From: an uncultured Pseudomonadota bacterium
Lineage (GTDB): Bacteria; Oederibacteriota; Muellerivitia; Muellerivitales; Muellerivitaceae
Direction: 5' to 3'
DNA: 64,000 nucleotides
Assembly (NCBI GenBank): GCA_963836235.1
Contig: CAWIIP010000002.1
Span: 1,536,001 to 1,600,000 of the forward strand
Part shown: positions 1,557-40,381 of the stretch, one piece after another
Position numbering within the stretch: position 1 is the stretch's first letter
How the letters are laid out: every line of letters begins with the position of its first letter
Position numbers and translations under genes: made by a program
Notes under the pieces: model-generated
Seen by the model: only the letters and a program-made list of their open reading frames with translations
What the model was told of the DNA's origin: nothing
Database searches by the model: none

Positions 1557-3713
1557 TTATTTTTGTTGGCTGGTTTCAACTCGAGAAAGGGTTGTGAGTT
1601 GTTCGAGAATTTCAGGGGATATCCGGTAACGGGGATTGAGAAGACCGGCCTTCTGAAATAGTTTCAAAGCTTCAGCGTAACGACCTTGACCGGCTAGAAT
1701 GGCCCCTTTTTGTTGCTCTAAGGATCCCTCATAATAATCCCAAAGACCGCAGTTATAACCGTTTCTTCTAGCCCAACGAAGTGCTTGGGCCACAGCTGGA
1801 AGATTTCCCTGGTCAAGAAAGCATTGGAGTACCTTTTCCATCAGACAGGATTGCCACAGAGGGTCACCCAAAGTTTGAGCCTGTAATCGCGCCAGGGCTT
1901 CTAGGGCCGGGGCATAACCACCGCCAGTCGAACGGTTTAGGAATAAAGCATTGGCTTCTTCAAAGGCAAGATGAATTTTATTCCACCTTTGCTGGTCTTC
2001 CGGGAGCATGGAGTCCCAAGGAAGGAAACCCAGAATAAGGCCCCCATAGGGTTGGGTAGAGTCGAAAGGTAGGAGAGTCCATTGGCCCCTGGGAAATCGC
2101 TTTTGGAGGAAAGGGCGATAAAAGGAATTCACTAAAAGCGCAACCCAGGGTGTTCGACCAGAAGTGATTTGGGATTTTTCTACAAGATTAAAGGGATAGC
2201 AGGCTATTCGTAAAGTTTGATCAGGCAAGTGCACGTCCCCACTAAAGTCGGCGGCGAACTCGGTGAACACCCGCCCCGGCCCCAAATCATCGGCGGTTTT
2301 TTTCAGGATTTGATAAGCCTGGAATTTTGCCGCAGATTTGAACTCGCGATTGTGATTTCCAGGTAATTGCCATTGCCGAAAAGGACCTATCAACTGATAA
2401 GTATCAAGTGAAAATGAGAGAAAGAGTAAGATTACCAAGATTAAAGTGCGACGGTCAGGCTGAGTGTCCGCCAAGAGTTTTTGAAATCCCACGCAAGCTA
2501 ATCCCAAGCCAATGGGAAGAACCGCAGCAATTCTCATCATTTCCTGATTTCCCGATAAAAGTCCTGGCAGGAGCAGGAATATAAAAGCGAAAAGGCTTCC
2601 CCAAGCTTCCGCATGTTTCCTGAAGCGAGCGGCTTCAGCTATTCCAAGAAAAATGGCCGAGCTGATGACAGGATTCCACAATCCACCCCAAAATGCCGTG
2701 AATCGAAAATTCCCGTTCCAAGTCCCCCAAAAAAGAGCGGTGATATAAGAAAGAGAATCCCGTAGCCGATCAAAAAGCGGTTTTGTCGAGGAATTAAAAA
2801 GCCAGTTTTGGGTCATATGATGGCCGATACCGGAATGATAAACTTGCCATAATAATGGCCCCATAAAAACTAAGAATGAGGCCAAATAGGCGAAAAAGGA
2901 GATGTAGCCATTTTTTCTCCCTTGAATAAGTAACCAAATACCTAAAAAAGGGGGAATGGCAATCAAAAAATTGGTGAAATAATATCCGATACCTATAGTC
3001 GCACCGATAATCGTGGCCCAAACGATCCTATGGTTTACGGATGAAAAGTGCCAAGCCGTTAATCCTCCCCCTATGACGCATTCCAAGGCCAAAGCCAAGC
3101 TAACGTTAGGGCACATCGCTTCGATGAGAAGCGGCCAAAAACTGAAAGCAAGGAAAAAAAACATTAGGAAGGAAAAAGACCGATTGAAAAAAAAACGAGA
3201 TATCCCATAACCTATTAACAAGCAAAAAAAAGAAAAAAAACAAAGATAAAGCCAAACGGCACCCAAAGAAGGAGAAATGATTTTGTAAAAACTTGAAATT
3301 ATCCATAGATAACCAACCGGGACGTCAGCATAACCGTAAAAAAATTGATGATTCCAGTGCTGAGAAATTTTCCAGGCGAAAGTATCTAAAAAACCATTGT
3401 CGTAAATCGGCCAAATAATTAGGTTATTGGCTACAAACCAACGGGCAACAAAGGCTAATAAAAAGAGGAAAAAAAAAGATAAAAAAGACGGAGGATTGAA
3501 AAATTCCAATTTCCAGGGAGGAGTTATTTCTGGAAGTGGAGTTTTTTTAACAACGATCACAAAAGGAACAATGACCAGGAATCCAAATGTGAATACTTTT
3601 ACAATTAGTGGCACGGAAGAATAAGCCAATATTATATTGGCCATAAAGCTCAAAACAAAAAACTGAAAAGATGATATAGGTCTTATGAACAATTTATAGT
3701 TTGTTGGGCGCAT
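1557..3713 (-). CDS. GT-C (PMT/ArnT, GT39/83-like) membrane glycosyltransferase with C-terminal TPR, paralog 1
   Basis: WPIYDNG loop motif, many TM segments, AFWGGLWNP, DQTL, PFLQKRFP, GDPLWQS, TPR-like tail. Confidence 0.75.
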   Translation of the reverse strand: MRPTNYKLFIRPISSFQFFVLSFMANIILAYSSVPLIVKVFTFGFLVIVPFVIVVKKTPLPEITPPWKLEFFNPPSFLSFFFLFLLAFVARWFVANNLIIWPIYDNGFLDTFAWKISQHWNHQFFYGYADVPVGYLWIISSFYKIISPSLGAVWLYLCFFSFFCLLIGYGISRFFFNRSFSFLMFFFLAFSFWPLLIEAMCPNVSLALALECVIGGGLTAWHFSSVNHRIVWATIIGATIGIGYYFTNFLIAIPPFLGIWLLIQGRKNGYISFFAYLASFLVFMGPLLWQVYHSGIGHHMTQNWLFNSSTKPLFDRLRDSLSYITALFWGTWNGNFRFTAFWGGLWNPVISSAIFLGIAEAARFRKHAEAWGSLFAFIFLLLPGLLSGNQEMMRIAAVLPIGLGLACVGFQKLLADTQPDRRTLILVILLFLSFSLDTYQLIGPFRQWQLPGNHNREFKSAAKFQAYQILKKTADDLGPGRVFTEFAADFSGDVHLPDQTLRIACYPFNLVEKSQITSGRTPWVALLVNSFYRPFLQKRFPRGQWTLLPFDSTQPYGGLILGFLPWDSMLPEDQQRWNKIHLAFEEANALFLNRSTGGGYAPALEALARLQAQTLGDPLWQSCLMEKVLQCFLDQGNLPAVAQALRWARRNGYNCGLWDYYEGSLEQQKGAILAGQGRYAEALKLFQKAGLLNPRYRISPEILEQLTTLSRVETSQQK

Positions 3714-4019: not shown

Positions 4020-6128
4020 TTAGTTCGCCGTGGTTCTTGGTTTTTGTAAAAAAGTCTCCGCATCCGTATGGTTGAAAGGAGCTTTCAAGGCCTTTTGAAA
4101 GGCTTCTTCCGCCTCTTTTTTATTACCGGCCATTGCGTCAAAAATCCCCAAATGTTCATATAAATGTGCCGCCGGGTATCCCTCTTGAGTGGCCTTCTCC
4201 AAAGCTTGAACGGCTTGTCGGTCGGAAGAGCCTGGTGTTAAAACGGATTCCTTAAAATATATGTCCGCGGCTTTTTCCCAAAAGCAGGACCTCAAAAAGG
4301 AATCCGAGTTAAAGGCCGGTTTGGCGTCGAACAAGGTTTTCAGGCTTTCCTGGTAGGTGCGGTCTGGGAAGTAACTGATGGTTTCGTCGATAAATGGATG
4401 AAGAGCCAAACTTGCCTCTTGCCAGTTTTTCAATTCCTTTATACGGGAAGAATCCAGCGGTATTACCCAAAGCATAAGGCCCCCGTCCGAAGATGACAAA
4501 TCTTTGGAGAGCCAGGCATAACGGCCATCTGGGAATCTCTTAGCCAAGAAAGGTTGGTAATTGACGTTGGTCAATACCGCAGCCCACTGGGCCTTTTCAA
4601 AGGAAAGATCCGGGTTTTCGGCGGCGTTGAAATCGTGGGCGGCCACGGTCAAGGTTTGATCCGGCAAACCCGGAATGAAATCATCGAAGAGGAGCCCTGG
4701 ACCCTTTTCCGAGGCGATTTGTTTGAGGAGTTCATAGGCCCGAAAGCGTTCCACGGATTTGGTATAACCCCGCCAAATGTCGGAAGTATCCCATAGATGG
4801 TGATAGACCCCAAACAAATGGTAAGAGTCCAGGCCCATTGCGGGGAGGAAAAGAAAGAGGCTTAAAACCATTCCTTTCCTATTGGGAAAGGAGGCACAAA
4901 GTTTTTGCCAACCCAAAGCCGTGATGACCAACATAACCGGAATCACCGGGACCATGCGAAAAGTTTCCCGGTCGCTTGTCAAAAGCCCCGGAAGGAGAAA
5001 AATGAAAAAGGCCCAAAGGAGCCAACGGTTCAAAGCAAGTTGACGGTTTTTCCATGTTTCCAAAAACCCCAGAAAAAAAAGAGAACCAAGAACTGGATTC
5101 AAGAAGCCTCCCCATAGGGGTTGATAAGTATGAAAATGAGTGTCCATTCCCCAGAAGAGAGCGCAAGGATAGGAAATTGAAACGGCGGCTTGTTGAATCC
5201 AAGAAGAGCTTTGATGGAAAATGGCCAGATGACGAAGATAAGAACCGTAACCCTGGGTGGCGCAGAGGTAAAAGAAGGGAAGGAATAGCAAGAAAAAGGG
5301 AAAAGCCCAAAAGAAAAAGGCTTGTTGAGAGACTTTTCCCGAGCTTTTCAAGCCATAAAGCAGGGTGGCCGCCAAAACCCCGGCAATGATCATCCAATGG
5401 ATGTGAATCAAAAAGCCAAAACCCAAGAGGAACCCCAAAGCCAAAGCCCATTTTTTCTGGGTCGAGGGAGACGAAGGGTGAAGAAAATTACCTAAAAAGT
5501 AGAAAGCCAGGCATTCAGCCAACAGAACAAGACCGGTCATAAAAGAAAATCTTCCCAAAAGCCAAGGCCAAAAACTAAAGGCCATCAGAAGGGCGAAAAG
5601 GAAAGAAAAAGATTTAGAAAAAAAACGGGTTGCGGCCCAATAGGCGGTAGGAACAACCAAAATGGAAACCAAGGCGGGAAGCAGCCAAAGGGAGAATAAA
5701 GAAGTCCCGAAAACTCGAAAGATTAAGCTGAGAAGCCAAATATAAAGGGGTGGAACGCGGCTATCGCCATAAAATAGCCGCCAATCCCATTTTTCATTTA
5801 ACTGGAGAGCATAATAGCCATAGACCCCCTCGTCATAGTGGGGCCAAACCGAAAGAGTAGTTAATTGGGAAAACCGCACGACTAAGGCCAAGATCCCAAT
5901 GAGGATCCACATCCAGGCGGGAATCGGGGGAAGGAATTCCGACTGATCTTTAGGTTTCTCCTCCCAGCTTTTGGCTTTACCGGTTCCAAGCCATAGCACC
6001 CCCGGCACCAAGAGACCCAGCAAGCCAATCCAGAGCTTAGCCTCCAGTGAAAAGGGAAAATAGGAAAGAACCGTATTCGCCGCCAAAAAGACGAGGAACA
6101 AGAAAAAGTTCCGCCGATTTTGGCTCAA
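4020..6128 (-). CDS. GT-C glycosyltransferase with C-terminal TPR, paralog 2
   Basis: WPHYDEG, PPLY, PLWGGFLNP, DQTL, PFLAKRFP, GYPAAHLY; TTG start. Confidence 0.8.
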   Translation of the reverse strand: MSQNRRNFFLFLVFLAANTVLSYFPFSLEAKLWIGLLGLLVPGVLWLGTGKAKSWEEKPKDQSEFLPPIPAWMWILIGILALVVRFSQLTTLSVWPHYDEGVYGYYALQLNEKWDWRLFYGDSRVPPLYIWLLSLIFRVFGTSLFSLWLLPALVSILVVPTAYWAATRFFSKSFSFLFALLMAFSFWPWLLGRFSFMTGLVLLAECLAFYFLGNFLHPSSPSTQKKWALALGFLLGFGFLIHIHWMIIAGVLAATLLYGLKSSGKVSQQAFFFWAFPFFLLFLPFFYLCATQGYGSYLRHLAIFHQSSSWIQQAAVSISYPCALFWGMDTHFHTYQPLWGGFLNPVLGSLFFLGFLETWKNRQLALNRWLLWAFFIFLLPGLLTSDRETFRMVPVIPVMLVITALGWQKLCASFPNRKGMVLSLFLFLPAMGLDSYHLFGVYHHLWDTSDIWRGYTKSVERFRAYELLKQIASEKGPGLLFDDFIPGLPDQTLTVAAHDFNAAENPDLSFEKAQWAAVLTNVNYQPFLAKRFPDGRYAWLSKDLSSSDGGLMLWVIPLDSSRIKELKNWQEASLALHPFIDETISYFPDRTYQESLKTLFDAKPAFNSDSFLRSCFWEKAADIYFKESVLTPGSSDRQAVQALEKATQEGYPAAHLYEHLGIFDAMAGNKKEAEEAFQKALKAPFNHTDAETFLQKPRTTAN

Positions 6129-6150: not shown

Positions 6151-8286
6151 TCATGGAAGCTTCCTCAAATTTAAAAGCGCCGGAGTATGGTTTAAAGGGG
6201 AATGTAAAGCCGCCTCGAAAGATTCACGAGCCTTGTCCTTGTCGCCCAACGTCCACCAAAGCACTCCTAAATCATTATATAAATTGGCGGCAGGGTATCC
6301 CAGTCGGATTCCACGGCTAAGGGCTTCCATCGATTTTGAATTATCGGAACAGGACAATCCGAAAAAAAATATTCTTTCGGCGATGAAGGATTCCAGAAAG
6401 GGATCCTTTCTTACCAAAGGTTCCAATTGAACTAATTTTTCTAGAACCCCTCGAGGCGGCTTTCCAAAGGGGGAATCAAACAATAAAGAAGTGATTCGAC
6501 GAAGCAACCTTTCGGTTTCCAACCAGTTGAAAAATTCTTTTTGATTGTCTCGTGTTATGGAAAAGATCCCCAATACCAGAGTTCCCTGGGGTGTGGCTGC
6601 ATCAGAAGTTAGTGGAAACCAATGGCTTTGGGGAAAACGCTGGGAAAGAAAAGGGGCAAAATTAATGTTGGTGAGAAGACCCGCCCAGTTGGCACTTTCC
6701 GGCGCAAGGCCCGGATTTCGTGCCGCATTGAAGGGGTAAACCGCTATAGCAAGAGTCTGGTCGAAAGGGCTTGTTTCCAATTCGGTAAAAATAAGGCCAG
6801 GTCCGCGAGCTCTCGACACGGATCCCAGAAGTTGAAAAGCGCGAAACCTTTCCATGGATTTAACGTCGAGAATAGCGGTCTGGGTACCGGAATGCCAAAT
6901 CTTTTGATAGGGTCCGAAAAGATGATAAATATCCATCCCAGAAGAAAGACACAAAAGAATAAAAACAACAGTAAGGCCCATTGGGCCGTTTCCCATCCAT
7001 TCGGAAAGCTCGTATAAACCCATGACACAAACAGTTAATAACATAGGAAACACCAGAAGCATACGAAGCATTTCCAAATCGTTTGAAAGTAGGGCTGGCA
7101 ATAAAAAAAGGCAAAGGCCAAAGAGTATCCAAGCCTTAAGGTGTTTTTCCTGGCTACGAAAGATGAAAATGAGGCCTAAAAGGAACAAAGTTCCGGCCAG
7201 GGGGTTTAAAAATCCTCCCCAAAAAGGTTTGAAAGCGAACCGATCAGTGTTTACCCCCCAAAATAAGCTCCCGAGGTATTGGGTGATAAGATGAAACTGT
7301 TCTTTTGGAGATGTTCCCCCCTGGAAGACCCAGCGAGATTTCAGGTAAATTCCATGGTTAGTTGAGAAGAAGATGATCAAGTACGGAAGCGAGGTTGAAA
7401 GCAAAAGCGTGAGAAAAGAAATCAAAATTCCTTTTCGACTTTCAAAATGGGGGATCACCATCCCTAAAACGGCTAAAAAAATGAAAGCGACCATCACCGG
7501 CCAATGGTGAAGAGTATAAAATCCCGTTCCCGTAAAAAAACCCAAGAATGCAGCGGTTATTTTCTTTATTTTGTTGGATGTTTGGCGTAGTAGGGTACCC
7601 AGCAAAGCAAGAACGGCCAACTGCCACAAAACCTCAATCTCATGGCCTTGACAGAAACGTCCCAAATAAAGAGGCTCAAAATTAAAGGCCCAAAGGCAGA
7701 TGAAAACGAAAGCAAAAGTTTCGGAGAAAAAAGCTTTGGCAGCCGCAAAGGCTAATGGAATGGTTAATAAGGATAAAATCGCCGGGAAAAGCCACAAGGT
7801 TTCAAGAGAAGGTCCTAATATCTTGAAAAATGTACCTAGACTCCAAACAAAAAGAGGAGGCCACTGAGCATATGAATAAAAAAAATGCCAATCCCCATTT
7901 TCAATTAATTCGATCCCATAGTACCCGCCCAATCCTTCTTCGCTTGTCGGCCAGGTAGATAAAGTCGTTAATTTGTAAAACCGTAATAGAATGGCGAGAA
8001 TCAAAAATACTACCCAGACCCATGTAGAAACGCGCGGGATAGATTCCCAGGAAAAAGCCGTTTTCGAAAGAACGGTAGGGGTCCAAATTTTTTTTAAAGC
8101 TATAACAAAAGGTATTCCAAGACCTATTAATCCAATCCACAATTTGGTTTCTAGGGAAATTGGAAAATAGGAAAGAAGAGTATTAGCGACCAGAAAAACA
8201 AAGAAATAAGTCCAGGGATTTCGAGCGAAGCGATCATTTTTACGGAAAAAAGAGGAGAATATTAATTCCATGAAAGATTTATCCAT
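6151..8286 (-). CDS. GT-C glycosyltransferase with C-terminal TPR, paralog 3
   Basis: WPTSEEG, PPLF, PFWGGFLNP, DQTL, GYPAANLY. Confidence 0.8.
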   Translation of the reverse strand: MDKSFMELIFSSFFRKNDRFARNPWTYFFVFLVANTLLSYFPISLETKLWIGLIGLGIPFVIALKKIWTPTVLSKTAFSWESIPRVSTWVWVVFLILAILLRFYKLTTLSTWPTSEEGLGGYYGIELIENGDWHFFYSYAQWPPLFVWSLGTFFKILGPSLETLWLFPAILSLLTIPLAFAAAKAFFSETFAFVFICLWAFNFEPLYLGRFCQGHEIEVLWQLAVLALLGTLLRQTSNKIKKITAAFLGFFTGTGFYTLHHWPVMVAFIFLAVLGMVIPHFESRKGILISFLTLLLSTSLPYLIIFFSTNHGIYLKSRWVFQGGTSPKEQFHLITQYLGSLFWGVNTDRFAFKPFWGGFLNPLAGTLFLLGLIFIFRSQEKHLKAWILFGLCLFLLPALLSNDLEMLRMLLVFPMLLTVCVMGLYELSEWMGNGPMGLTVVFILLCLSSGMDIYHLFGPYQKIWHSGTQTAILDVKSMERFRAFQLLGSVSRARGPGLIFTELETSPFDQTLAIAVYPFNAARNPGLAPESANWAGLLTNINFAPFLSQRFPQSHWFPLTSDAATPQGTLVLGIFSITRDNQKEFFNWLETERLLRRITSLLFDSPFGKPPRGVLEKLVQLEPLVRKDPFLESFIAERIFFFGLSCSDNSKSMEALSRGIRLGYPAANLYNDLGVLWWTLGDKDKARESFEAALHSPLNHTPALLNLRKLP

Positions 8287-8322: not shown

Positions 8323-10434
8323 TCAAGAAACATTATCCAGTTCCTTTAAGTTTTGAGAAGCTGGTGTCAAGTTGACCGGGCATTTTAAAGCTTTTTGAAA
8401 GTAATGACGGGCGGCTTTTAGGTCGTTTTTTTTCCACAAAAGTAGCCCCATTTGGTCGTAAAAAAAGGCGTTGGGGTATCCTAATTCCAAACCCTCCTGT
8501 ATGGAATGAATGGCTCCATCGATATCGCCCATTAGTACGTTATAGAACTCCATTTTTCCCCATAAACAGGATTCCAAAAAGGGATCACCTTGAGCCAGCG
8601 GTTGTAAACCTTCCAATTCTTGGACAATATTTTCACCTGACATTTTTTCAGTTTGAAAAATCATTTCCAGGGTCAATTTCCGGAAAGCCAAGTTGGCGGC
8701 GGTCCACTTTTGGAGAACATTTTTAACGCCGGGAGTAATGGGAATAATCCCCAATGATAAGCCACCATCAGGTCGGGATAAATCTTGTGAAAGCCAAGAC
8801 CATTGGCCTTGGGGTAATCGCTTTTGTAGGAAAGGGATGAAATGGGGATTCGCCAGAACCGCAAACCATTTAACCTTATCCATGGGAAGGGCGGGATTAC
8901 GAAGAACATCAAAAGAAAAGCCGGCGATTGCGAGGGTTTGATCAAAGGTTTTCGGGGAGAAATCCGTGAATAAAATTCCGGGGCCTTGTTCCTTGGATTG
9001 CAGTTGCAGTTTCTCAAAAGCCCTCCATCGCTCGACGGATTTGAAGTCGGCGCATTCGGGGTTGGGCACACCCCACTTTTGATGGTAAGGGCCGAAAAGA
9101 TGATAAGTATCGATGGCCGTGGAAAAAATTAAAAAAAGAATGAACCATGGCAGAGCATGTTTCGGATTTGAGGGTGATAAAAGCCATAACAACCCAATGC
9201 AACAAACGATTAATAGAAATGGAAGGACGGGCAGGATGCGGTACATTTCCACGGAAATTGTCGTGATGCCCGGAATCAGGCATATTCCCAAGGCGGCCAT
9301 TAACCACAGGCTCCAAGCCTCCTTTCGGCATTGAATTGTCCAGGCTAGTCCGATGAAGAAGGCGCTGGCTAAAAAAGGATTCAAGATGCCCCCCATAATG
9401 GGGCGGTAGCATTGCCCCAAGGGATCAGCGCCCCAAAATAACATGGTGAAATTGGACAATGCCAACTTCCAGCCATAGTTCAGCGAAGCCATATTTTGGA
9501 ATAAAAACAAACTGGAAACATAGTGACCATAGCCTTCCCGCACGAGATTTACCCAAAAGGGCCCCGCCGTCACGAGGAGCGCGGCTGAAAACCCAAAGGC
9601 GTCCTTTAATCCACTTTTCCCCCCGCGCCCCCCCTGTATCCAGACGAAGGCCGTTAACAGCAGGAAGACACTCCACCAGGAGGTAAAAGTGTAAAAACCG
9701 GCACCAACACAAAAGCCCAATCCAACCGCCCAGCCAAACCGTCCCTCGGGTTCTTTTATTTTCAAAAAACCAAGGAGAAGCCATAAGCAAAGGGATTCCC
9801 AAAAAAGGGCCATCATTCCTGGATGGGAGAGTCTTCCACAATAAAGCGGCCAGAAGCTCAATGCCGCCAAGCTGAAAAATAGGAAACCGAACGACAGGCC
9901 GAATAATTTCCTGGCCGCCATGGCAAGGAAGACAAAAGAAAGGAAAGATAGGAATGCCGGTAGAAGCCATAGGTTGAAGAGAGAGACGCCACAAAGCTTA
10001 AAAACAGCCGCTAAGGCCCAAAAATAACCCGGTGGCATTCGGCTGATTCCATAAAGCAGGGAGCCATCCCAGTGCTTCATTAAATGGATTCCAAAAAAAC
10101 CGACCCAGCCCTCATCCGTGATAGGCCAAGTGGAAAGCGCGGTAAGGTGGTAAAACCGGAGAAAGAAAGCTAAGGCTAAAACGGAAATCAAAGTCCATTT
10201 AGGAGTGGAAGTGAAAATCTCCAAACGATAAGGATGTTTTTCCGCCGGTAGCTGTTGTGGGACAGAAAAACAAAGGAAAAGGAACGGGAGTAAGATTCCT
10301 ACTAGCCCAATGCCGATTTTAACCCCCAGAGTTATTGGCGCGTAGGCAAGTAAGGTGTTGGAAATTAAAAAAATGAAAAAGTAAAACCAGGCAGGCGTTG
10401 CAAACATCAGAGTTTTCTTTAAAGAAGCAGGCAT
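8323..10434 (-). CDS. GT-C glycosyltransferase with C-terminal TPR, paralog 4
   Basis: WPITDEG, PIMGGILNP, DQTL, GDPFLES; its ATG overlaps the hpnE stop (TAATG). Confidence 0.8.
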   Translation of the reverse strand: MPASLKKTLMFATPAWFYFFIFLISNTLLAYAPITLGVKIGIGLVGILLPFLFLCFSVPQQLPAEKHPYRLEIFTSTPKWTLISVLALAFFLRFYHLTALSTWPITDEGWVGFFGIHLMKHWDGSLLYGISRMPPGYFWALAAVFKLCGVSLFNLWLLPAFLSFLSFVFLAMAARKLFGLSFGFLFFSLAALSFWPLYCGRLSHPGMMALFWESLCLWLLLGFLKIKEPEGRFGWAVGLGFCVGAGFYTFTSWWSVFLLLTAFVWIQGGRGGKSGLKDAFGFSAALLVTAGPFWVNLVREGYGHYVSSLFLFQNMASLNYGWKLALSNFTMLFWGADPLGQCYRPIMGGILNPFLASAFFIGLAWTIQCRKEAWSLWLMAALGICLIPGITTISVEMYRILPVLPFLLIVCCIGLLWLLSPSNPKHALPWFILFLIFSTAIDTYHLFGPYHQKWGVPNPECADFKSVERWRAFEKLQLQSKEQGPGILFTDFSPKTFDQTLAIAGFSFDVLRNPALPMDKVKWFAVLANPHFIPFLQKRLPQGQWSWLSQDLSRPDGGLSLGIIPITPGVKNVLQKWTAANLAFRKLTLEMIFQTEKMSGENIVQELEGLQPLAQGDPFLESCLWGKMEFYNVLMGDIDGAIHSIQEGLELGYPNAFFYDQMGLLLWKKNDLKAARHYFQKALKCPVNLTPASQNLKELDNVS

Positions 10435-11780: not shown

Positions 11781-12631
11781 TAATCCCCAGTCCATTTCCA
11801 CAGCCAACAGCGGCCTATAGTTCCTGTCACCGAAAGCAGTTTGTCCCATTTGGACAAGTTGGTTCGGCCTTTCAGGATTCGGTAGGGATTAGATTTCAGC
11901 TTTTGAAAGAGCTTCACGTAAACCGCTGCGATGGCTTCGGCGGTCATTAATTTGGTCCGCTGGGAGCGGGTGAGGGATTGCCGGGCCTTTATCAGGAAGC
12001 CCCAGGCTCGATTCAGTTGGAATTCGACGAAAGGTTTCCAATGGGAATCCATCTCTTCGATATGGTCTGGATTTAAATGGAAGAGCTTGAAATCTTCAGC
12101 CGGAAAATAAAGGCGGTTAAGGGACTTGTCTTCCTTGTAATCCCTTACCACATTAACGATTTGAAGGAAAATTCCGAGGTTTTCAGCGTAGTCCCGATGA
12201 GGTTTGTCCTTGAAACCAAATATTTCCATGCTGGCAAGCCCAGGTCCCCCCGCTACCTGAAGGGCATATTGGTGAAGTTCGGCGAATTTTTTGAAACGGA
12301 CAGGCTTAAGGTCCCGCTCCACCCCTTTCACAATTCGTTCCAAGGGTTTCTCAGTAAGTCTGAAATGGTAGATGAGTGGTTGAAACTGTTGAAAAAAGGG
12401 ATCTTTGGGGTTGCCGTGGAAGGCCTTCTTTAAGTTTTGCTTAAAGTGAGCCAATTTTCGTTTCTTTTCAGAGAGAGAACCGATACCGTCCGAAATCTCA
12501 TCCACTATCCAACAATAACGATAGAGCAGTGCCATCGCCTGCCGTTTTTCCTTGTTTAAAAGAAGAAGCGGGTAATAAAAACTTGTTTTATTTTCAAGGG
12601 AACCGATTTTGGGATTCAAAAAAATCCTCAA
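11780..12631 (-). CDS. hpnD: Presqualene diphosphate synthase HpnD
   Basis: TSFYY…VDEISD and QIVNVVRDYKED squalene/phytoene synthase motifs; lies between hpnC and hpnE. Confidence 0.85.
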   Translation of the reverse strand: MRIFLNPKIGSLENKTSFYYPLLLLNKEKRQAMALLYRYCWIVDEISDGIGSLSEKKRKLAHFKQNLKKAFHGNPKDPFFQQFQPLIYHFRLTEKPLERIVKGVERDLKPVRFKKFAELHQYALQVAGGPGLASMEIFGFKDKPHRDYAENLGIFLQIVNVVRDYKEDKSLNRLYFPAEDFKLFHLNPDHIEEMDSHWKPFVEFQLNRAWGFLIKARQSLTRSQRTKLMTAEAIAAVYVKLFQKLKSNPYRILKGRTNLSKWDKLLSVTGTIGRCWLWKWTGD

Positions 12632-22201: not shown

Positions 22202-22283
22202 CCCATACCTTGGAGGAGCCATTTATGAGCGAGATTAAGATGAAACCTTTCGGATGCTTCCTTCTGCTTCTTCTGGCTCTCCC
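21464..22283 (+). repeat. ~820-bp direct repeat, copy 2
   Basis: Matches 19400-20219. Confidence 0.92.
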
Positions 22284-31884: not shown

Positions 31885-32628
31885 TCATATTTGAATTTTC
31901 GAGAAGAGATAGCTTCCGACCGCCAAAAAGAAAGCCGAAACCAAGGTTAACACCGCCAAATCCGTTCCCCATCCATAAAAGGAAGCTTGCCCCAATGCCG
32001 ACCTTAAACCATCTACCCCATAGGAAAGGGGATTTAAGGTTGTCACTAACGCCATTCCCGCCGGAAGCCCCGCAAGAGGGAACATGGCTCCTGACAGAAA
32101 GAACATCGGCATGACGAGGAAGTTCATAATGAGGGGAAAGCTTTGCATATCGTTCACCTGGGAGGCCAGAGCCGTGCCGAAAGCCGTGAAAAGAACAGCG
32201 ATAAGGAACATGAAAAGCAGCGCCAACGGAAGAGCTATTAGCGAGGGCCTAAAACCAAAAAGAGTGGCCAAGACGAAAACGATCAAACCTTGGAGCAAAG
32301 CCACTGTGGCACCACCCATCGTGCGGCCAATCATGATATGGAGCCGAGGTACAGGGGCCACTAGGGTTTCCTTTAGGAATCCGAATTGCCGATCCCAAAT
32401 TATCTCAATCCCCGAAAAAACACCGGTAAAGAGGATTCCCATGGAAATAACCCCCGGCGCCAAGAACTGCAAGTAGTCTCCCTTACCAGCCTGAGAATAA
32501 ATCTTCCCAAAGCCAAAACCGAAAGCCAAAAGAAAGATCAATGGCTGGCCCAGGGAACCGATCATCCTTGGCTTGGAACGGAAATAGCGCTTCAACTGCC
32601 GAAGCCACATGATGTAAATGGTGCTCAT
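31885..32628 (-). CDS. ABC-2 type exporter permease (DrrB-like)
   Basis: FLAPG, DRQFGFLKETLVAP, PMFFLSG, NPLSYGVD; ATG 32628 lies just after the ATPase stop. Confidence 0.9.
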   Translation of the reverse strand: MSTIYIMWLRQLKRYFRSKPRMIGSLGQPLIFLLAFGFGFGKIYSQAGKGDYLQFLAPGVISMGILFTGVFSGIEIIWDRQFGFLKETLVAPVPRLHIMIGRTMGGATVALLQGLIVFVLATLFGFRPSLIALPLALLFMFLIAVLFTAFGTALASQVNDMQSFPLIMNFLVMPMFFLSGAMFPLAGLPAGMALVTTLNPLSYGVDGLRSALGQASFYGWGTDLAVLTLVSAFFLAVGSYLFSKIQI

Positions 32629-32629
32629 G

Positions 32630-33427
32630 TCAGCGCCTCCACATTTTTTTCTGCATCCGAAGCCCCTCAATGTTGGAAGCGTCCTCGTCACGCAAGGTAT
32701 GGCCAGTCACCTGGATAAAGGCGTCTTCCAGGGACTTGGCCCTGGCCTTTTTCTTCAAGGTGGCAGGCGTTCCTTGGGCGATGATTTTCCCGTGGTCGAT
32801 GATGGTGACTTGGTCAGCCACCCGTTCGGCTTCTTCCATGTAATGGGTTGTGAAAAACACAGTGATCTTTTCCTTGCGGTTCAGGTTCTTAATGTAATTC
32901 CAGATATGGTTGCGGGTTTGGGGATCGAGCCCCACGGTGGGCTCGTCCAGGAAAAGAATTTTTGGATGGTGTAGCAGGCCCCGGGCGATTTCCAAACGCC
33001 TTTTCATCCCTCCGGAAAACTGCTTCACCAAATCATTTCGCCGATCCCAAAGCTCGACAATTTTTAATAATTCCTCAATTCGTTGTTTCCTCAATTCCGC
33101 TGGCACCTTGTATAGCACCCCATGAAAATCCATGTTTTCTCGGGCCGTTAGCTCGTCGTCAAGGCTGGGATCTTGAAATACAATTCCGAAAGAGCGACGA
33201 GCATCGTTTTGCTCGGTGACGGGATCATGCCCATCCAAAAGGATTTGGCCTCTCGTGGGTTTCAATAAGGTCGTCAGCATTTTAATGGACGTGGTTTTAC
33301 CCGCGCCGTTGGGGCCCAAGAAGCCGAAGATCCGGCCTTTTCCAACGGAGAAGGAAATGTTTTGGACCGCAGTGAAATCACCGAATTTCTTGGTGAGGTT
33401 TTTCACCTCGATGATAGGCTGTTTCAT
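32630..33427 (-). CDS. ABC exporter ATP-binding protein (DrrA-like)
   Basis: GPNGAGKT, FSGGMKRR, LDEPT. Confidence 0.93.
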   Translation of the reverse strand: MKQPIIEVKNLTKKFGDFTAVQNISFSVGKGRIFGFLGPNGAGKTTSIKMLTTLLKPTRGQILLDGHDPVTEQNDARRSFGIVFQDPSLDDELTARENMDFHGVLYKVPAELRKQRIEELLKIVELWDRRNDLVKQFSGGMKRRLEIARGLLHHPKILFLDEPTVGLDPQTRNHIWNYIKNLNRKEKITVFFTTHYMEEAERVADQVTIIDHGKIIAQGTPATLKKKARAKSLEDAFIQVTGHTLRDEDASNIEGLRMQKKMWRR

Positions 33428-33485
33428 GAAAATCCTTTTAGCATAGAATTTAAGAAGAACCAAGATTTGGTTGGTGACTGGGTGA

Positions 33486-35585
33486 CTAATTGTAAAGAGG
33501 GGAAGGAGGAATCTCGTCTATCTTATTTGAAAGGGACAAGGCTTTCTTGAAATCCCTTCTCGATTCCCCTGTCCGGCCTTGGATTTTCAAACAAACGGCC
33601 AGGTTATAATATAGATGGGCGGCTGGAATCCCCTGTTGAATGGCCTGCTGATAAGCCTGGGTCGCTTGGATGAAATAACCGTCTAAAAATTTGAAAAACC
33701 CCAACTTTTCCCAATAAACGGCGGATAAAAGGGGGTCTCCCGGAAAGATGTCGCCTAAAGATGGGTGGGATTCCAAAAAACTGGCCCATAATTCGATAGA
33801 TTTTTTATTTTTAACCTCGAAATCGATTTCTTTAAAAATTCCATCCGCCTTCATCCAACGGTCCAACAGGTCACCTGAGATTTGGGATGTGGGGATAAGA
33901 AAGAGGGCGAAAGGTTTTGGGTCATCGGGGCCCGTTTTGTCCGTTTTTAGGATATTCGCCTGCATTCCCTGGAACCTTTTTACAAAATAAGGTTCATATT
34001 GAATATTGGTGATCAAGGCCGTCCATCGGGGATGGAAAGAACGAAGGGAAGGATTTTGAAGCGCATCGAACGGATAACAAGCCACATCCAAAGTTTTATT
34101 GTCGTAATCGGTGTTAAATTCCGAAAAAACGTAAAGGGGGCCGTCTTTTCGGCTTAAATTGGAAAGGATATTATAAGCATCATAATATTCCATATTACGC
34201 CATTGTTTGCCGGAAGGGATAAGTGGGGTATTGCAATAGTGGTTCACATAGTTATCGAGGTCTAAGGCAAAAGATCCCATCGCGAATAAAAATACTCCCC
34301 CTAAACTCAGGAAATGATGCCGGTTAGCGATCAAGCCAAAAGCGCCCATGGCCGCCAAGAAGGTAAGGAGAGGGAAGGTGAGCAGGATACGGTAAAGTTC
34401 GATGTTGTTCGTCAATAATGCCGGGAGGGCGGCCGTCAACCCGCAAAAGATAAAACCGAAAAAAAAACCACTGGAAACTTGGCGAAAAAGAAAAATGAAC
34501 CCTAGGAAAACCAAGGCGCTTAAAATGGGGTTGAAAAACCCCCCCCAGTTGGACCCATAAGGAAAGCTGTAAATTCCATTCCAAAAGATTCCTTTCCCAT
34601 AAAAAGCAAGCGACGTAAAAATGGATGAGCTTAATAGTTGGTGAATGTGGGTGGCTCCCCCGGCTGAAAGGCGGGCTAAGAGGAGGGGAAGGATGATAAA
34701 GAAAGTCATACCGGCAAAAACAGCGAACTGTTTTCTGTCCTTTTTTTCATTTGAAAAGCAATTCACAAAAAGAATCCCAGCGAGCCCAAGCCAGATCCCC
34801 CCCCAATTTATCCAGGCATAGAACCCCATCGACGAGAAGAGGGTTAGAAATAGAAGAATCGCCCATTTCCTTTTCGAACTGTCCGATCGGAGCCAGTATC
34901 CGAGAAAACCAAAACAGAGGCATTCAAAAAGAGGGCCCCAAATAACGGGAATATTTAGGCGTGACAGCGTCCCTTCCCAGAATGAAAAAGCCAGAAGCCA
35001 GGAAAAGAGGAAAGCCAGGGACCTGGGAAAATATTGCCGGGCAGCCCAGTAACCGGCCGCCACGGTAGCCAGCGAGACCAATGCGGAAAAAAGTCGAAAG
35101 GAGAAAAAGGAGGGTTCGATGACTTTGAAGTAAAGTGCTAAAAGCCAAAAAGCCAGGGGTTCCACCTGTACCGGGGAATAAAGCAATCTCCAATCCCAGT
35201 GATGGGAAAGCCTCAAACTGGCGAAACCCACGATACCCTCGTCGGAGATGGGCCAAAATGGCAGAGAGGTCAATTCATAAAATCGTGTCAAGACAAGCAA
35301 TAGAAGGAATAGGATCCAAAGCCACAGAGGAATGGAATTCACCTTTTCGTCTAAGAGGAAGCGAACTCCTGGTTTTTCATTACGACGTTCAAGGAAAATA
35401 AAATGAAGAGCCGTGATCATTGGAAGAAACAAGCCCAACAAGCCAATCCATAGCTTTGCGGAAAGAGAAATAGGCCCGAATGATAAAAGGGTGTTAGCAA
35501 ACAGAAAAATAAAGAAATAGACCCACGGGTTATAGGGGAGTTGGTTTTTCCAAATTGAAGAAAAGGTGAATTCTGGAGTGGGCAT
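33486..35585 (-). CDS. GT-C glycosyltransferase with C-terminal TPR, paralog 5
   Basis: WPISDEG, NWGGFFNP, YPF, GDPLLS, GIPAAHLY. Confidence 0.8.
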   Translation of the reverse strand: MPTPEFTFSSIWKNQLPYNPWVYFFIFLFANTLLSFGPISLSAKLWIGLLGLFLPMITALHFIFLERRNEKPGVRFLLDEKVNSIPLWLWILFLLLLVLTRFYELTSLPFWPISDEGIVGFASLRLSHHWDWRLLYSPVQVEPLAFWLLALYFKVIEPSFFSFRLFSALVSLATVAAGYWAARQYFPRSLAFLFSWLLAFSFWEGTLSRLNIPVIWGPLFECLCFGFLGYWLRSDSSKRKWAILLFLTLFSSMGFYAWINWGGIWLGLAGILFVNCFSNEKKDRKQFAVFAGMTFFIILPLLLARLSAGGATHIHQLLSSSIFTSLAFYGKGIFWNGIYSFPYGSNWGGFFNPILSALVFLGFIFLFRQVSSGFFFGFIFCGLTAALPALLTNNIELYRILLTFPLLTFLAAMGAFGLIANRHHFLSLGGVFLFAMGSFALDLDNYVNHYCNTPLIPSGKQWRNMEYYDAYNILSNLSRKDGPLYVFSEFNTDYDNKTLDVACYPFDALQNPSLRSFHPRWTALITNIQYEPYFVKRFQGMQANILKTDKTGPDDPKPFALFLIPTSQISGDLLDRWMKADGIFKEIDFEVKNKKSIELWASFLESHPSLGDIFPGDPLLSAVYWEKLGFFKFLDGYFIQATQAYQQAIQQGIPAAHLYYNLAVCLKIQGRTGESRRDFKKALSLSNKIDEIPPSPLYN

Positions 35586-35980: not shown

Positions 35981-38053
35981 TTAAGGTAAAAGATATTTTA
36001 AGCCAAGATCCTGAAGCCTTAAGGCCGCCGGAGTTCGATTGGAAGGGGCCCTTATAGCCGCCTGAAAAGCTTGGGCGGCATCCTGTTTCTTTCCTTCAAA
36101 GTTCAAAAATATTCCCAAGGAGTAATACAAGTTCGCCGAAGGATAGCCCCGTTTTAAAGCCGTTTGGAGATCCCCTACTGTGTTAGAAAGTTGTCCGGCT
36201 GAAGCGTCGTCCAATGCAGTTCTTTCCCAGTAAACCGACTCCAAGAAGGGGTCTCCTTTAAATAAGCCATAGGACAATCTCAAGTTTTCGCTCCAACGAT
36301 TCTGCTCATCACCGATCTTTTCATACAGGGTCTTATCGCGTTCCATCTGAAGCGCTTGGTCGGCCTGGAACCAGTGCTTCAACGTTTCCTGGTCGACGAA
36401 ATCAATAGGAATGAGACCTAAAAGCAAGCCGCTATTTCTGGAAGAAACGATAGAAGGAAGCCACTGCCAGTGAGCCCGCGGAAAGCGTTTCGCGAGAAAA
36501 GGCTGGTCATTAGCGTTAGCCAGCAAGGCGGCCCAACGGGGTGGGGCGGAAAAAGGATCCTTTTTTTCACCTGTGTTAAATTCATAAACGGCGACTGAAA
36601 AAGCAAAAGTGGGTTTCGTAAGGAAATTGTCAAAAATCAGAAAAGGCCCATTCGTTAAATTTTCACGCTCCAAGATTTGGAGGGACTTGGCGAATTCCAC
36701 TGGCCTCCATTCTTTTTTATCATCGGACAATGACTGTAAGTCGGGATAAACGACAAATAAATGATAACTGTCCAATAAGACAGATAAAAAAAGCAACAAA
36801 CACCCAATTTTTATCGCCATCCCTTCTGAAAAAAATAACCGCAGCGATAAAAAGCCCAAGACCGCGCCCGCCAAAAGAAAGGGACAAAGTTGGACGATTC
36901 GGAACATCTCAAAGCCATGGGTGAGTATTCCGGGTAACCAAAGAATAGGAAGGGAAACCAAGAACCAAATATCTGTCCTTTGTTTGCGATATAAGGAAAT
37001 GCAGACTCCCGCCAAGAAGAGGGATCCGAGGATTGGATTCAAAAATCCACCCCAGACGGGTCCATAAAAAGAAGTAAAAGAAAGTCCCGAAAAGGGAGCA
37101 AAAGCATAGCCCCGGATCGTTTGAAAACGATTTTGGATGAAATTCTCCGATCCCGTGGTCAAGAAGACGTCACGGATATAATTTCCGAATCCTTCATGGA
37201 AGGCGCCATAGACAAGAGGTCCCAGGCAAATCAACAAGGTTAAGAAATAAACAAGCAGAATCCGGGGCGAGGCATTTTTTTTTCGGAAGGTCAAGGCCAT
37301 TACCGGCAAGGAAAGAACCAACGCCACCGAAGGCCAGGACGTGAAGGTATAAAATCCCCCTCCGACCGCTAAACCTAGAAGAAAAACTTGTGGAAGGCGT
37401 TTTTTCTCAGGGCTTCCGACGAAACAAGCCAATCGCCAAAGGGCCATATATTCCCACATCAACATCAAAGCCGCCGGATGGCAAAAGCGACCGGTATAAA
37501 GAGGCCAAAAGCTAAAAGCCGTGAGTAGGGTGAAAAGGATCGAAAAAGAATGAGAAGCAAAACGACGGGAGGCAAGGAAGGCGAATACAACTGTGGCGCA
37601 TGAAAGAAGTGCTGGAAAAAACCACAAGGTAAAAAGGGAAGGTGAAAAAAATTTAAAAAAGGCCGCCAGAAACCAGATAAAAAAAGGAGGAAATTGGGCA
37701 ACGGTATAAAAGAAATGAAATTTCCCGGTTTTGAAAAGATCCAAAGCCAAAGCGGCATGAAAGCCTTCGTCGGACAAAGGCCAGGTTAAAAGAGTGGTCA
37801 AGCGGTAAAAGCGCAAAAAACAAGCGGTTAATCCCATTGTCAACCATAGCCAAGGAGAAACTGAAAAGGGAGCCTCGGTTTTTTCGAGAGCAAAAGACGG
37901 ATTTTTCCAAAGCATAACCAGTGGCAGGATCAAACCGATTACGAGCAAAGAAATTATCCAAGGAGAAGACGGTGGTAAATAGGAAAAAACAGAAAGAATT
38001 AAAAACCAAAGGATCAATCCAAACCAAGGTCGAAGGGTATGATTCAATGCCAT
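35981..38053 (-). CDS. GT-C glycosyltransferase with C-terminal TPR, paralog 6
   Basis: WPLSDEG, PVWGGFLNP, PFLAKRFP, GDPFLES, GYPSANLY. Confidence 0.8.
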   Translation of the reverse strand: MALNHTLRPWFGLILWFLILSVFSYLPPSSPWIISLLVIGLILPLVMLWKNPSFALEKTEAPFSVSPWLWLTMGLTACFLRFYRLTTLLTWPLSDEGFHAALALDLFKTGKFHFFYTVAQFPPFFIWFLAAFFKFFSPSLFTLWFFPALLSCATVVFAFLASRRFASHSFSILFTLLTAFSFWPLYTGRFCHPAALMLMWEYMALWRLACFVGSPEKKRLPQVFLLGLAVGGGFYTFTSWPSVALVLSLPVMALTFRKKNASPRILLVYFLTLLICLGPLVYGAFHEGFGNYIRDVFLTTGSENFIQNRFQTIRGYAFAPFSGLSFTSFYGPVWGGFLNPILGSLFLAGVCISLYRKQRTDIWFLVSLPILWLPGILTHGFEMFRIVQLCPFLLAGAVLGFLSLRLFFSEGMAIKIGCLLLFLSVLLDSYHLFVVYPDLQSLSDDKKEWRPVEFAKSLQILERENLTNGPFLIFDNFLTKPTFAFSVAVYEFNTGEKKDPFSAPPRWAALLANANDQPFLAKRFPRAHWQWLPSIVSSRNSGLLLGLIPIDFVDQETLKHWFQADQALQMERDKTLYEKIGDEQNRWSENLRLSYGLFKGDPFLESVYWERTALDDASAGQLSNTVGDLQTALKRGYPSANLYYSLGIFLNFEGKKQDAAQAFQAAIRAPSNRTPAALRLQDLGLKYLLP

Positions 38054-38134: not shown

Positions 38135-40381
38135 TTACGGTTGTAGCGAGGTGGCTAGAAGTTGGTAGTGATCCGCGAATTTTGCGGCCGAAGCCGCTTC
38201 TTCCTTTTTCCCCATCCGAGTGAGAGGGTCGATTAATTGGCGGTAAGCTTGGGCCACATGATATTTTTTCTGGATAACATGGTGAAGGGCATCAATAGTT
38301 CGCACATCGTTTCGATAGTAGTATTCATCATAATTAGCCAATTTTTGCCAGAAGTGCCCGCATTGAAGATCCAATAGCGGGTCGGCGGAACAAGCCGCCA
38401 CTCCGCGGAGCGCCGATTGGCGGGCTTGATCCATTAAAGCGTTGTCCGATTCCTCGATACTCGCCAGTTTGTCCCAAAAACAAGATTCCAAGAAAGAATC
38501 TCCTTCAAAATAATGCCAACGGTCTTTTAGGGCTTGGAGAACCGGACCATAGTTGCTTTTCCAAGTGTGATAGGGCATCAAAGAAAAGATAGCATCTAGG
38601 GATTGATGAGCCTGAAGCCACCGGTTCAAAAGTGGATTCGAAAGAGGAGAGAGAGGAAACCATGCCAAGATTAAAGGGCCATCGGCCCGGGGAAATCCTT
38701 CGGAAAGCGGGTAGATCCGGCATTCCGGAAAGTGCTGGACTAAATAGGCTTGGTATCTAGCGTTAATAAATAGGGCTGTCCACCGAACCTGATTCGGTTC
38801 CAGGCTTGGGTTAACGGCCGCATTAAAAGGGTAGGTTGCTGTAAACAGGGACTGATCAAAAATATCGGGAACCAGATCGGCCAAAAGGAAACCAGAACCT
38901 TCTTTGGTTTCCAAGACCTTGAAGGCGTTGAACCGTTCAGGAGATTTATAAGGCCCGGATTGAAGGCCCGGAATGGCCCATTGGTGATAAGGTCCCCATA
39001 GATGGTAAAGGTCCAGCCCAAAGGAAGTTGAAAATAAAAAAATTATGATCGGTATTCTGCCAGCTTTGGGAATGCCCATTAAAAAATGGCTACTTCCCAG
39101 GGTGGTCAAACCCACCACCCAAGGAAGAACAGGAAGCAACCGCATTAGCTCCAAGTTCTTGGAAAGCAATGCGGGCAAGAGGGAAACCCCCAATCCACCA
39201 ATTATCCAATAAAAAAAAGGTTTTTTGCGGAATCGAAAAAGTTCCACCAGGCCGAGTAAAAAAGTGGAGCCCCAAATGGGGTTCAGAAATCCACCCCAAA
39301 AAGGGCCGAAACAAAAAGATTTAGCAGGAGAGCCCCAAAGGAAGGACGAAAGGTATGAAGCGCAAAGGGTCCATTGATCTTTAAGGGGGTTGGGCTGGCT
39401 GAAAATGAGATGGCTGTAAACATGCCCCGCTGAAAGATTCGTGAAAACGTCGGAAGCTATAGGGAGAATCAAAAGTAACGCCCCAAAGATGAAACAAGCT
39501 GGAGTTTGGAGTTCCGTAGGTTTATTCCAACCGTAAATCCAGAGGTAAAGTGAAGCAAGAAAAAAAAACGTTACCAAGTTTACAATCCAAATATAAATTC
39601 CTAAGCCCATACCCAAGCCTAAAGCGAAAACCAAAACCAGGGAAGGACCCCGCTTGAGGCTTTTCAGGCAAAGCCCAAGCAACCCTACGCAAAAGAGCTG
39701 CCATAAAACAACGAGAGACAAAGGCGAGCAAAATTGTCCGAGATAAAGGGGCCAAAAACCAATGGCTAAAAAAGCAGCCCCCCAAAGGGAATAAGAATTG
39801 GAAAAAAATTGCCGTAACGTCCACCAACCCAGCGGCAAAGCCAGGGTTGAAAGGATTTCTTGAAAAAGACGGATTGAAAAAAAGGATGGAGGGCAAAGCT
39901 TGAAGAATAAGGCTTGCAACCAAAAATAAAGAGGACCAAGCTTTTCAGAGGTATAGGTCAACTGCCAAGTCCAATGCTGGAACTGCCGAATACTGAAATA
40001 GCTAATCAAGGCGTCATCCCACATCGGCCAGGCTGGAAGTGAAACTAATTTGTAAAACCGAGAGGAAACGGCCAACCCTACTAAAACGATTCCCAACCAT
40101 TTTGCGCGTCGATCCAGGAACTCTTCCGAGAAAAAGATTTTTTCATGAGTTGAAATGGGGATGGACGTCAAAAGCCCCAGCGTCAAGGGGAATAAAATGC
40201 CGATGAGACAGATCCAAAACTTTGTTTGAAGGTTGAAGCGAGAATAAGACAAAAGAAAATTTGAAAGGGTGAAAATCAGGAAATAGAGCCGCGCGTCATA
40301 AATCAGATCTTTTAGAAGATTTTTTTCGGTCGATTTCAATTCTTTCCTTGATGAGTATGGTTTCAAGAAAATCACGAACAA
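38135..40381 (-). CDS. GT-C glycosyltransferase with a divergent helical C-terminus, paralog 7
   Basis: WPMWDDA, PFWGGFLNP, DQSL…YPFNAA, GDSFLES. Confidence 0.78.
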   Translation of the reverse strand: MFVIFLKPYSSRKELKSTEKNLLKDLIYDARLYFLIFTLSNFLLSYSRFNLQTKFWICLIGILFPLTLGLLTSIPISTHEKIFFSEEFLDRRAKWLGIVLVGLAVSSRFYKLVSLPAWPMWDDALISYFSIRQFQHWTWQLTYTSEKLGPLYFWLQALFFKLCPPSFFSIRLFQEILSTLALPLGWWTLRQFFSNSYSLWGAAFLAIGFWPLYLGQFCSPLSLVVLWQLFCVGLLGLCLKSLKRGPSLVLVFALGLGMGLGIYIWIVNLVTFFFLASLYLWIYGWNKPTELQTPACFIFGALLLILPIASDVFTNLSAGHVYSHLIFSQPNPLKDQWTLCASYLSSFLWGSPAKSFCFGPFWGGFLNPIWGSTFLLGLVELFRFRKKPFFYWIIGGLGVSLLPALLSKNLELMRLLPVLPWVVGLTTLGSSHFLMGIPKAGRIPIIIFLFSTSFGLDLYHLWGPYHQWAIPGLQSGPYKSPERFNAFKVLETKEGSGFLLADLVPDIFDQSLFTATYPFNAAVNPSLEPNQVRWTALFINARYQAYLVQHFPECRIYPLSEGFPRADGPLILAWFPLSPLSNPLLNRWLQAHQSLDAIFSLMPYHTWKSNYGPVLQALKDRWHYFEGDSFLESCFWDKLASIEESDNALMDQARQSALRGVAACSADPLLDLQCGHFWQKLANYDEYYYRNDVRTIDALHHVIQKKYHVAQAYRQLIDPLTRMGKKEEAASAAKFADHYQLLATSLQP

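Follow-up and report, generated by a model that had tools for sequence, protein, structure and literature searches.

A lineage-specific family of predicted GT-C glycosyltransferases with short repeat-containing tails in an uncultured bacterium of the Muellerivitaceae

The DNA described here, referred to as the window, is a stretch of 64,000 nucleotides (nt) from an uncultured bacterium placed in the GTDB family Muellerivitaceae (assembly GCA_963836235.1, contig CAWIIP010000002.1, positions 1,536,001 to 1,600,000). It contains two tandem arrays with altogether seven genes, w1 to w7, all on the minus strand and encoding membrane proteins of about 700 amino acids. Structure modelling gives good support to the view that these are inner-membrane glycosyltransferases of the GT-C fold (class A, ArnT/PMT-like), and they form a lineage-specific family. 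What is new is a family that has a private N-terminal hairpin and motif set, is restricted to one taxonomic family, is present in 4-24 old copies per genome, and is found in two conserved neighbourhoods.

The seven genes are uninterrupted open reading frames (ORFs) of 690-748 codons from start to stop. Both their coordinates and their open frames agree with the initial annotation of this DNA, which had listed seven intact ORFs of around 700 codons. Read in the direction of transcription, array 1 begins with w4 (8323..10434; 703 amino acids). It is followed after 36 nt by w3 (6151..8286; 711 amino acids), the sole copy with a glutamate instead of an aspartate at the first of the two acidic positions described below, and after another 22 nt by w2 (4020..6128; 702 amino acids, TTG start), which is the protein used for the structure model. 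The last gene, w1 (1557..3713; 718 amino acids), lies 306 nt beyond w2; it has diverged more than any of the other six, and its acidic pair is D-N. Array 2 consists of w7 (38135..40381; 748 amino acids, TTG start), w6 (35981..38053; 690 amino acids) 81 nt after it, and w5 (33486..35585; 699 amino acids) after a further 395 nt. The proteins align from end to end, with 25-29% identity to the first sequence and 37 invariant columns. The consensus motifs of the 7-row and a 51-row alignment are FLxANTLLSYxPxSLxxKxWIGL, WPxxDEG, PxWGGFLNP, DQTLxxAxYPFNA, PFLxKRFP, GDPFLES, and GYPxAxLY, and every element of the shared motif set that had been noticed earlier is present in the 7-row consensus. Scans for promoters and terminators found no more sites than in shuffled sequence, and the operons are not delimited by them.

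A family profile built from 51 members was used to search the host genome (3.97 Mb, 99.4% complete). It scores 541-1024 bits on 15 ORFs and 92 bits on the next one, and the boundary of the family is therefore sharp and not a matter of chance. In addition to the seven genes in the window, an eighth is found about 5 kb past its end, while the others occur as three pairs and one single gene. All 15 genomic copies are open and full length. The seven-member expansion described initially is thus correct for the window, but the genome holds 15 members.

Two of the seven proteins reach the gathering cut-off (26.1 bits) of the Pfam family PMT_2 (PF13231), with 29.3 and 29.8 bits, and the other five score 19.3-23.7 bits. 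In a six-frame search of the genome ten of the 14 listed family copies were above this cut-off. Genome-wide, PMT_2 has 34 matches, of which this family accounts for 14, and the TMEM260-like family PF11028 has eight. Otherwise, Pfam gave only sub-threshold tetratricopeptide repeat (TPR) matches in the seven proteins, and at E <= 0.1 none of them matched MIR, DUF1736, or PF11028. In NCBIfam no model for ArnT, for lipid A or lipopolysaccharide (LPS) enzymes, or for any other glycosyltransferase matched any of the seven at E <= 0.1; weak TPR-type matches far below the cut-offs were all that was obtained. When the whole-family profile was compared with solved structures, only TPR proteins were found among the best 60 of 78 matches, and a profile of the transmembrane part found neither ArnT nor any other solved GT-C enzyme at E <= 10. 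Since both profile searches miss the solved GT-C enzymes, the homology to them is visible by fold alone.

The structure of w2 was modelled with AlphaFold from the 51-sequence alignment (pLDDT 91.6, pTM 0.90). The model is composed of an N-terminal two-helix membrane hairpin (residues 1-50), a GT-C core of 11 helices (~69-445), an alpha/beta domain (~446-560) with strands at 478-481, 515-521, 536-539, and 551-557, and a TPR part (~561-700). It is a multi-span membrane fold that contains the helix module conserved in GT-C enzymes, and its best Foldseek matches were ArnT (E 4e-9), Pmt4, Pmt1-Pmt2, STT3/AglB/PglB, ALG9/12, and the mycobacterial Aft/Emb enzymes. The GT-C assignment of the initial annotation is thus borne out by the predicted fold, and no curated ArnT or lipid A model matches the proteins. 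Residues 1-65, which carry the ANTLLSY...KLWIG motif, were unaligned in all but a few of the Foldseek rows, none of which begins before residue 62, and the hairpin that they form is private to this family. The alpha/beta domain and the TPR tail would by topology be periplasmic. The TPR part is short, with about three repeats in ~130 residues. The TPR tail noted earlier is supported by a profile search of PDB structures and by the fold match, but besides being short it does not reach the gathering score of any Pfam TPR model in any of the seven proteins. Three fold searches returned no TMEM260 or TMTC structure among their matches, and the likeness to these two enzyme types discussed below is a likeness to their described layout.

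In the w2 model the core starts with a helix at 71-86 and the first juxtamembrane helix is at 98-112; between the two lies the aspartate of the WPxxDEG motif (D99, followed by E100). The first acidic position is D in 14 of the 15 copies and E in one, while the second is E in ten, D in two, and N, V, and S in one copy each. In the 51-row alignment D99 is at least 90% conserved, and R85, W95, and R391 are invariant. Among the 15 genomic copies the last of these is R in 14 and H in one, and it is found directly before the helix 395-412, which is transmembrane helix (TM) 10. Going by the aligned ranges, where residue 69 of the model is paired with residue 26 of ArnT, D99 falls at about ArnT residue 56. 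The active-site acidic pairs are given as D55/E56 in ArnT and D77/E78 in Pmt1, and an arginine near the N-terminus of TM10 is described as contacting the lipid phosphate; the same account reports a catalytic Asp together with a phosphate-binding Arg for ArnT, PMT, STT3, and TMTC (PMC7801869). Judged by their position in the sequence, D99 and R391 seem to correspond to these two residues. The acidic pair proposed earlier does sit just after TM1, as in ArnT and Pmt1, but its second residue varies across the 15 copies.

At E <= 1e-30 the family is found in all 30 other genomes examined from the same taxonomic family, and in none of 68 genomes that represent 22 other families in the phylum. A smaller sample agrees with this and gave 4-24 matches per genome. 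Among 1.84 billion cluster representatives there were 687 matches at E <= 1e-30; of the best 150, almost all are near full length (573-865 amino acids). The 15 copies of the genome are 26-39% identical to each other. For 14 of them the nearest relative outside the genome (37-79% identity; 195 proteins of at least 550 amino acids were compared) is nearer than any paralog of their own, C2:1736818 being the exception, and the duplications are therefore old. The orthologues of w2 and w1 within the genus are 79 and 71% identical, respectively, and the ratio of nonsynonymous to synonymous substitution rates (dN/dS) is 0.12 for w2 and 0.28 for w1, in a comparison where dS is around 1 or higher and near saturation. 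For hpnC, hpnD, and hpnE, which are found next to array 1, the same comparison gave 0.13-0.23. Both paralogs tested are under purifying selection. Calculated separately for each domain of w1 and w2, the ratio gave no trustworthy sign of relaxed or positive selection; dS is again around 1 or higher, and it is saturated for the N-terminal part in w2 and for the TPR in w1.

The arrays themselves turn over rapidly, even inside one genus. In a same-genus genome (locus L021, 530-17161) the gene order is hpnC, hpnD, a family copy, hpnE, and then five more copies, and the copy between hpnD and hpnE overlaps both neighbours at its ends. Only two of these six copies are close orthologues of genes in the window, and the counterparts of w3 and w4 are at most 38% identical. 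In other relatives, some copies contain one or two in-frame stop codons (G018 C13:167192-169225, G021 C18:107126-109141, G005 C85:33435-35495, G016 C64:169151-171127, and G076 C4:16153-18195). This fits a process of gene birth and death, but sequencing errors are also possible.

To our knowledge, the only enzymes combining GT-C and TPR parts whose substrates are known are the eukaryotic TMTC1-4 and TMEM260, while numerous bacterial ones have been annotated by likeness alone. Human TMEM260, a protein O-mannosyltransferase, is described as an 11-helix GT-C core (24-415) followed by a luminal Rossmann-like domain (416-564) and a TPR domain (565-706); recruitment of the acceptor peptide requires the TPR domain, which also suffices for it (bioRxiv 10.64898/2026.03.17.711096). 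Compared with this description, the w2 model has the same parts in the same order and of the same size, and both have an Asp after TM1 and an Arg near TM10. The family differs in its extra N-terminal hairpin and in having no match to PF11028, a model that does find eight other genes in this genome. One of these is in the window (50430-52625, plus strand; PF11028 91 bits); it represents a different family of GT-C-plus-TPR proteins, with a C-terminal TPR, and in an hhalign comparison with the family only the TPR tail aligned, with a probability of 63%.

The O-mannosyltransferases of cadherins, TMTC1-4, are likewise several paralogs with distinct substrates and have an 11-TM ArnT-like core followed by non-cytoplasmic TPRs (PMC7801869). 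They lack the intervening alpha/beta domain, while the present family has no DUF1736 match. The PMT enzymes (GT39; yeast Pmt1-Pmt2 and Pmt4, and actinobacterial Pmt) differ in that the family has no MIR domain, its luminal part instead being the alpha/beta domain and TPR that follow the last TM. TMTCs carry a long array of TPRs, compared with about three in the proteins studied here. ArnT has neither TPR nor N-terminal hairpin, and is normally encoded by a single gene in an arn operon. The mycobacterial Emb and Aft enzymes act on arabinan or mannan and not on proteins, and their accessory domains are carbohydrate-binding modules, not TPRs. A bacterial precedent for protein modification is found in streptococci, where GtrB/PgfS and PgtC2/PgfM1 are described as a system in which the GT-C enzyme moves sugar from undecaprenyl-phosphate to Ser/Thr-rich disordered extracytoplasmic regions (PMC12041528). 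One glycosyltransferase of family 2 (GT2) in the present genome is PgfS-like, albeit below cut-off. PgtC2/PgfM1, on the other hand, are of the YfhO type, lack TPR, occur in one or two copies, and belong to Gram-positive hosts.

The suggestion that such a system had not been described in bacteria was overstated. Proteins of about 700 amino acids with PMT_2 and TPR parts are common in Cyanobacteriota, Bacteroidota, and Verrucomicrobiota, where they are automatically named 'ArnT family' or 'GT39', and the streptococcal GT-C case is reported as proven (PMC12041528). A literature search, which did not cover supplements, found no functional study of any bacterial PMT_2-plus-TPR protein. It returned nothing on this family and, for the biology of the lineage, nothing beyond community surveys.

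Array 1 is preceded directly, on the same strand, by hpnC (12642-13511), hpnD (11780-12631), and hpnE (10434-11849), with gaps of 10 nt or overlaps between the genes; between hpnE and w4 the overlap of stop and start is 1 nt. In NCBIfam HpnC scores 301.9 bits (cut-off 250.45) and HpnE 340.4 bits (cut-off 283.05), while HpnD is below its cut-off with 188.7 bits (278.6). In at least 15 of 31 genomes of the taxonomic family, representing seven genera, hpnE is followed directly by two to five family copies. SQS_PSY genes of the hpnC/hpnD type are present in all 26 genomes searched for them, and HpnE is matched in all of 31, but a squalene-hopene cyclase domain was found in none of 26. The lineage thus makes squalene without cyclising it, which suggests a non-hopanoid fate of this compound. 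In sister families where the enzyme family is missing, HpnE likewise exceeds its cut-off, for instance in G025, G028, G029, G039, and G070. A GT2 enzyme resembling HpnB/CruG, below cut-off, is encoded elsewhere in the genome (L029). Divergent from hpnC lies a gene pair (13785-16282, plus strand) encoding a 390-residue protein without family and a DltB-like MBOAT acyltransferase (185 bits, cut-off 375), which may be a pair for acylation of a surface polymer.

Array 2 is flanked by prfC (40447-42045), located 65 nt upstream of w7. On its other side, the gene for a DrrA-like ATPase of an ATP-binding cassette (ABC) transporter (32630-33463, minus strand) is found 22 nt downstream of w5, together with that for a DrrB-like ABC-2 permease (31885-32691, minus strand). 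This pair is possibly an exporter or flippase partner of w5. A search for related loci using a single family protein found only two loci. A comparison of 23 loci in 13 genomes showed one to three family copies directly after prfC in 11 of the genomes and the ABC pair after a family copy in six. Since prfC encodes a translation factor, and its adjacency is as conserved as that of hpnCDE, synteny is here weak evidence of a shared function. The eight copies outside the window have unrelated neighbours, and no partner gene is common to them.

What these enzymes glycosylate is less certain than what they are. The reading we favour, tentatively and with somewhat less than an even chance of being right, is protein O-glycosylation of Ser/Thr in the Thr/Pro-rich linkers of secreted proteins and lipoproteins. 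It is favoured because the build is that of TMEM260, in which the TPR recruits peptides, because linkers are so numerous, and because GT-C enzymes of streptococci provide a precedent. Judging from the fold and the conserved residues, the donor would be a sugar linked to polyprenyl phosphate. A cytoplasmic GT2 enzyme would put the sugar on polyprenyl phosphate, and the lipid-linked sugar would then be flipped to the periplasmic face. There the GT-C core would bind the phosphate of the donor, with R391 before TM10 as the likely contact, while D99, at the start of external loop 1, might position or activate the acceptor hydroxyl. Selection of the acceptor would be left to the periplasmic lobe formed by the alpha/beta domain and TPR, and the acceptor is the least certain step of this scheme. 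The old paralogs would on this account be specialised for different classes of acceptors or for different sugars.

Candidates for the first and the last of these steps are encoded by the genome. It has 22 GT2 matches, none of which adjoins an array, and of ten GT2 genes that were scanned, five are similar to synthases of polyprenyl-phosphate sugars (AglJ-, PpgS-, ArnC-, and PgfS-like), all below the curated cut-offs. When genes were approximated as the longest non-overlapping ORFs instead of by a real gene call, 154 of 3672 contained a 40-residue window of which Thr+Pro make up 50% or more, and most of the encoded proteins start with a signal or lipoprotein-like sequence. These proteins typically have TPTxTPT runs, and many are very large secreted proteins (1000-4400 amino acids) encoded in clusters. 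At least three proteins with Thr/Pro linkers are encoded in the window (17214-19196, 44222-46852, and 47201-48295). The first of these (plus strand) is a candidate acceptor of 660 amino acids; it is lipoprotein-like, has a Thr/Pro/Ser-rich stretch of ~160 residues after the signal peptide, and belongs to no Pfam or NCBIfam family. DNA encoding TPTxTPTxTPT was found in all 25 genomes of the taxonomic family that were searched, with 2-3211 hits, and G012 and G022 have more than 3000 such stretches each. Over these 25 genomes the number of enzyme matches and the number of stretches are correlated (Spearman 0.58, or 0.49 per Mb), which is suggestive but not decisive.

Several observations weigh against protein O-glycosylation. 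Copy number and number of stretches both follow genome size (rho 0.66 for copies), and the genomes are related by descent, so that the correlation is confounded in two ways. TPTxTPTxTPT stretches also occur in nine of 16 sister-family genomes that lack the enzyme family, four of them with at least 50 hits, while G013, a member of the taxonomic family, has eight enzyme matches and only two stretches. Genes for Thr/Pro-linker proteins are not visibly clustered beside the 15 copies, and the conserved neighbours, hpnCDE of a lipid pathway and the genes for an ABC-2 exporter, do not encode glycoproteins. A flippase of the GtrA type was searched for in the genome and not found, and LpxC is present. 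The best single structural match, with the periplasmic domain included, is the lipid A enzyme ArnT (PDB 5f15/5ezm). Finally, the identity among the paralogs is nearly even along the protein, with 31% in the hairpin, 31% in the core, 34% in the alpha/beta domain, and 26% in the TPR, and the supposed acceptor-reading part is therefore only mildly more variable than the rest.

Some of these points fit better with a role in the assembly of envelope glycans or glycolipids, an alternative that is serious even if we think it rather unlikely. Each paralog would then contribute a single sugar or linkage to a non-protein acceptor, which may be lipid A or the LPS core, as with ArnT, or a surface polysaccharide built or decorated outside the cytoplasm, as by the mycobacterial Emb, Aft, and Mpt enzymes; the TPR tails would serve as a scaffold towards the export machinery. 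The reasons to take it seriously are that the periplasmic domain resembles that of ArnT, that an ABC-2 exporter adjoins array 2, and that array 1 is found in a lipid operon. Copies of the w5 type lie directly before the DrrAB-like exporter in six of the 13 genomes examined, but this link is absent in the other seven. The class of ABC-2 transporters also exports O-antigen and teichoic acids. The 34 PMT_2 and eight TMEM260-like matches are reminiscent of the builders of cell-wall glycans, and LpxC counts in the same direction. None of the seven proteins, however, is matched by a curated model for ArnT or another lipid A or LPS enzyme, the transmembrane profile matches no solved GT-C enzyme by sequence, and the GT2 genes are all located away from the arrays. 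No gene of the Wzy type was noticed near the other eight copies, where the neighbouring products were not run against family libraries. Furthermore, TMEM260, the one solved enzyme of the same build, is described as using its TPR to recruit peptides (bioRxiv 10.64898/2026.03.17.711096). Should envelope glycans nevertheless be the product, the lineage would represent a second independent case of the mycobacterial strategy, in which many GT-C enzymes assemble a glycan in the periplasm.

The neighbourhood of array 1 could also be taken to mean that the copies linked to hpnCDE glycosylate or otherwise handle a squalene-derived lipid, for instance hydroxysqualene or a C30 carotenoid-type product. 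The recurrence of copies after hpnE in at least 15 of 31 genomes and seven genera, the 1-nt overlap with w4, the copy inserted with overlapping ends between hpnD and hpnE in the same genus, and the absence of the cyclase domain (0/26) where SQS_PSY is universal (26/26) all point that way. Still, we regard this as improbable. The occurrence of HpnE above cut-off in sister families without the enzyme family implies that the squalene pathway needs no such enzymes, only four of the 15 copies in this genome are found in the hpn operon, and the adjacency to prfC is conserved just as well (11 genomes). In addition, the active site of GT-C enzymes faces the periplasm, and a separate HpnB/CruG-like GT2 is available for glycosylation of lipids. 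Even less probable, and in our view hardly credible, is that most copies are non-catalytic, being decaying duplicates or TPR scaffolds. The second acidic position has been lost in three of the 15 copies (N, V, and S), R391 is replaced by H in one, and some copies in relatives carry the internal stops listed above for G018, G021, G005, G016, and G076. All 15 copies of this genome, however, are open and full length and have kept the first acidic residue, dN/dS is 0.12-0.28 for the two tested, and the paralogs have been retained in spite of their age.

If protein O-glycosylation is combined with the other observations, a wider picture emerges which is unlikely to hold in all its parts. In this picture the clade possesses the largest known bacterial battery of protein-specific O-glycosyltransferases, with at least 15 TMEM260-style enzymes per genome in addition to some 20 other PMT_2-type and eight TMEM260-like ones. 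Each TPR lobe would read a different class of Thr/Pro linkers, turnover of the arrays would vary the sugar coat, and for a core subset co-transcription with the genes of squalene synthesis would couple surface glycosylation to the lipid composition of the membrane. The clade is in any case a natural experiment, with 4-24 old and diverged copies per genome, clear groups of orthologues, a huge pool of Thr/Pro-rich candidate acceptors, and two reproducible sets of neighbours. If the enzymes turn out to be protein O-glycosyltransferases that are specific for their acceptors, the way in which a TPR lobe determines the substrate could be learned from them, and this widespread uncultured soil lineage would prove to have a surface glycoproteome that has so far gone unrecognised.

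Two further observations were made on Thr/Pro-rich proteins encoded in the window. The protein encoded at 47201-48295 (minus strand) contains NHL repeats in addition to its Thr/Pro linker, and its gene adjoins one encoding a TPR protein (48461-49699, plus strand). The region 19322-23766 (plus strand) is a tandem duplication with a period of 2064 nt and complete identity over at least 300 nt (19400-19699 and 21464-21763). Two near-identical secreted proteins of 271 and 284 amino acids are encoded there, the N-terminal part of each being Lys-rich and then Thr/Pro/Ala-rich. Each of them is followed by one of two diverged paralogs (20146-21249 and 22210-23766) that belong to no Pfam family.

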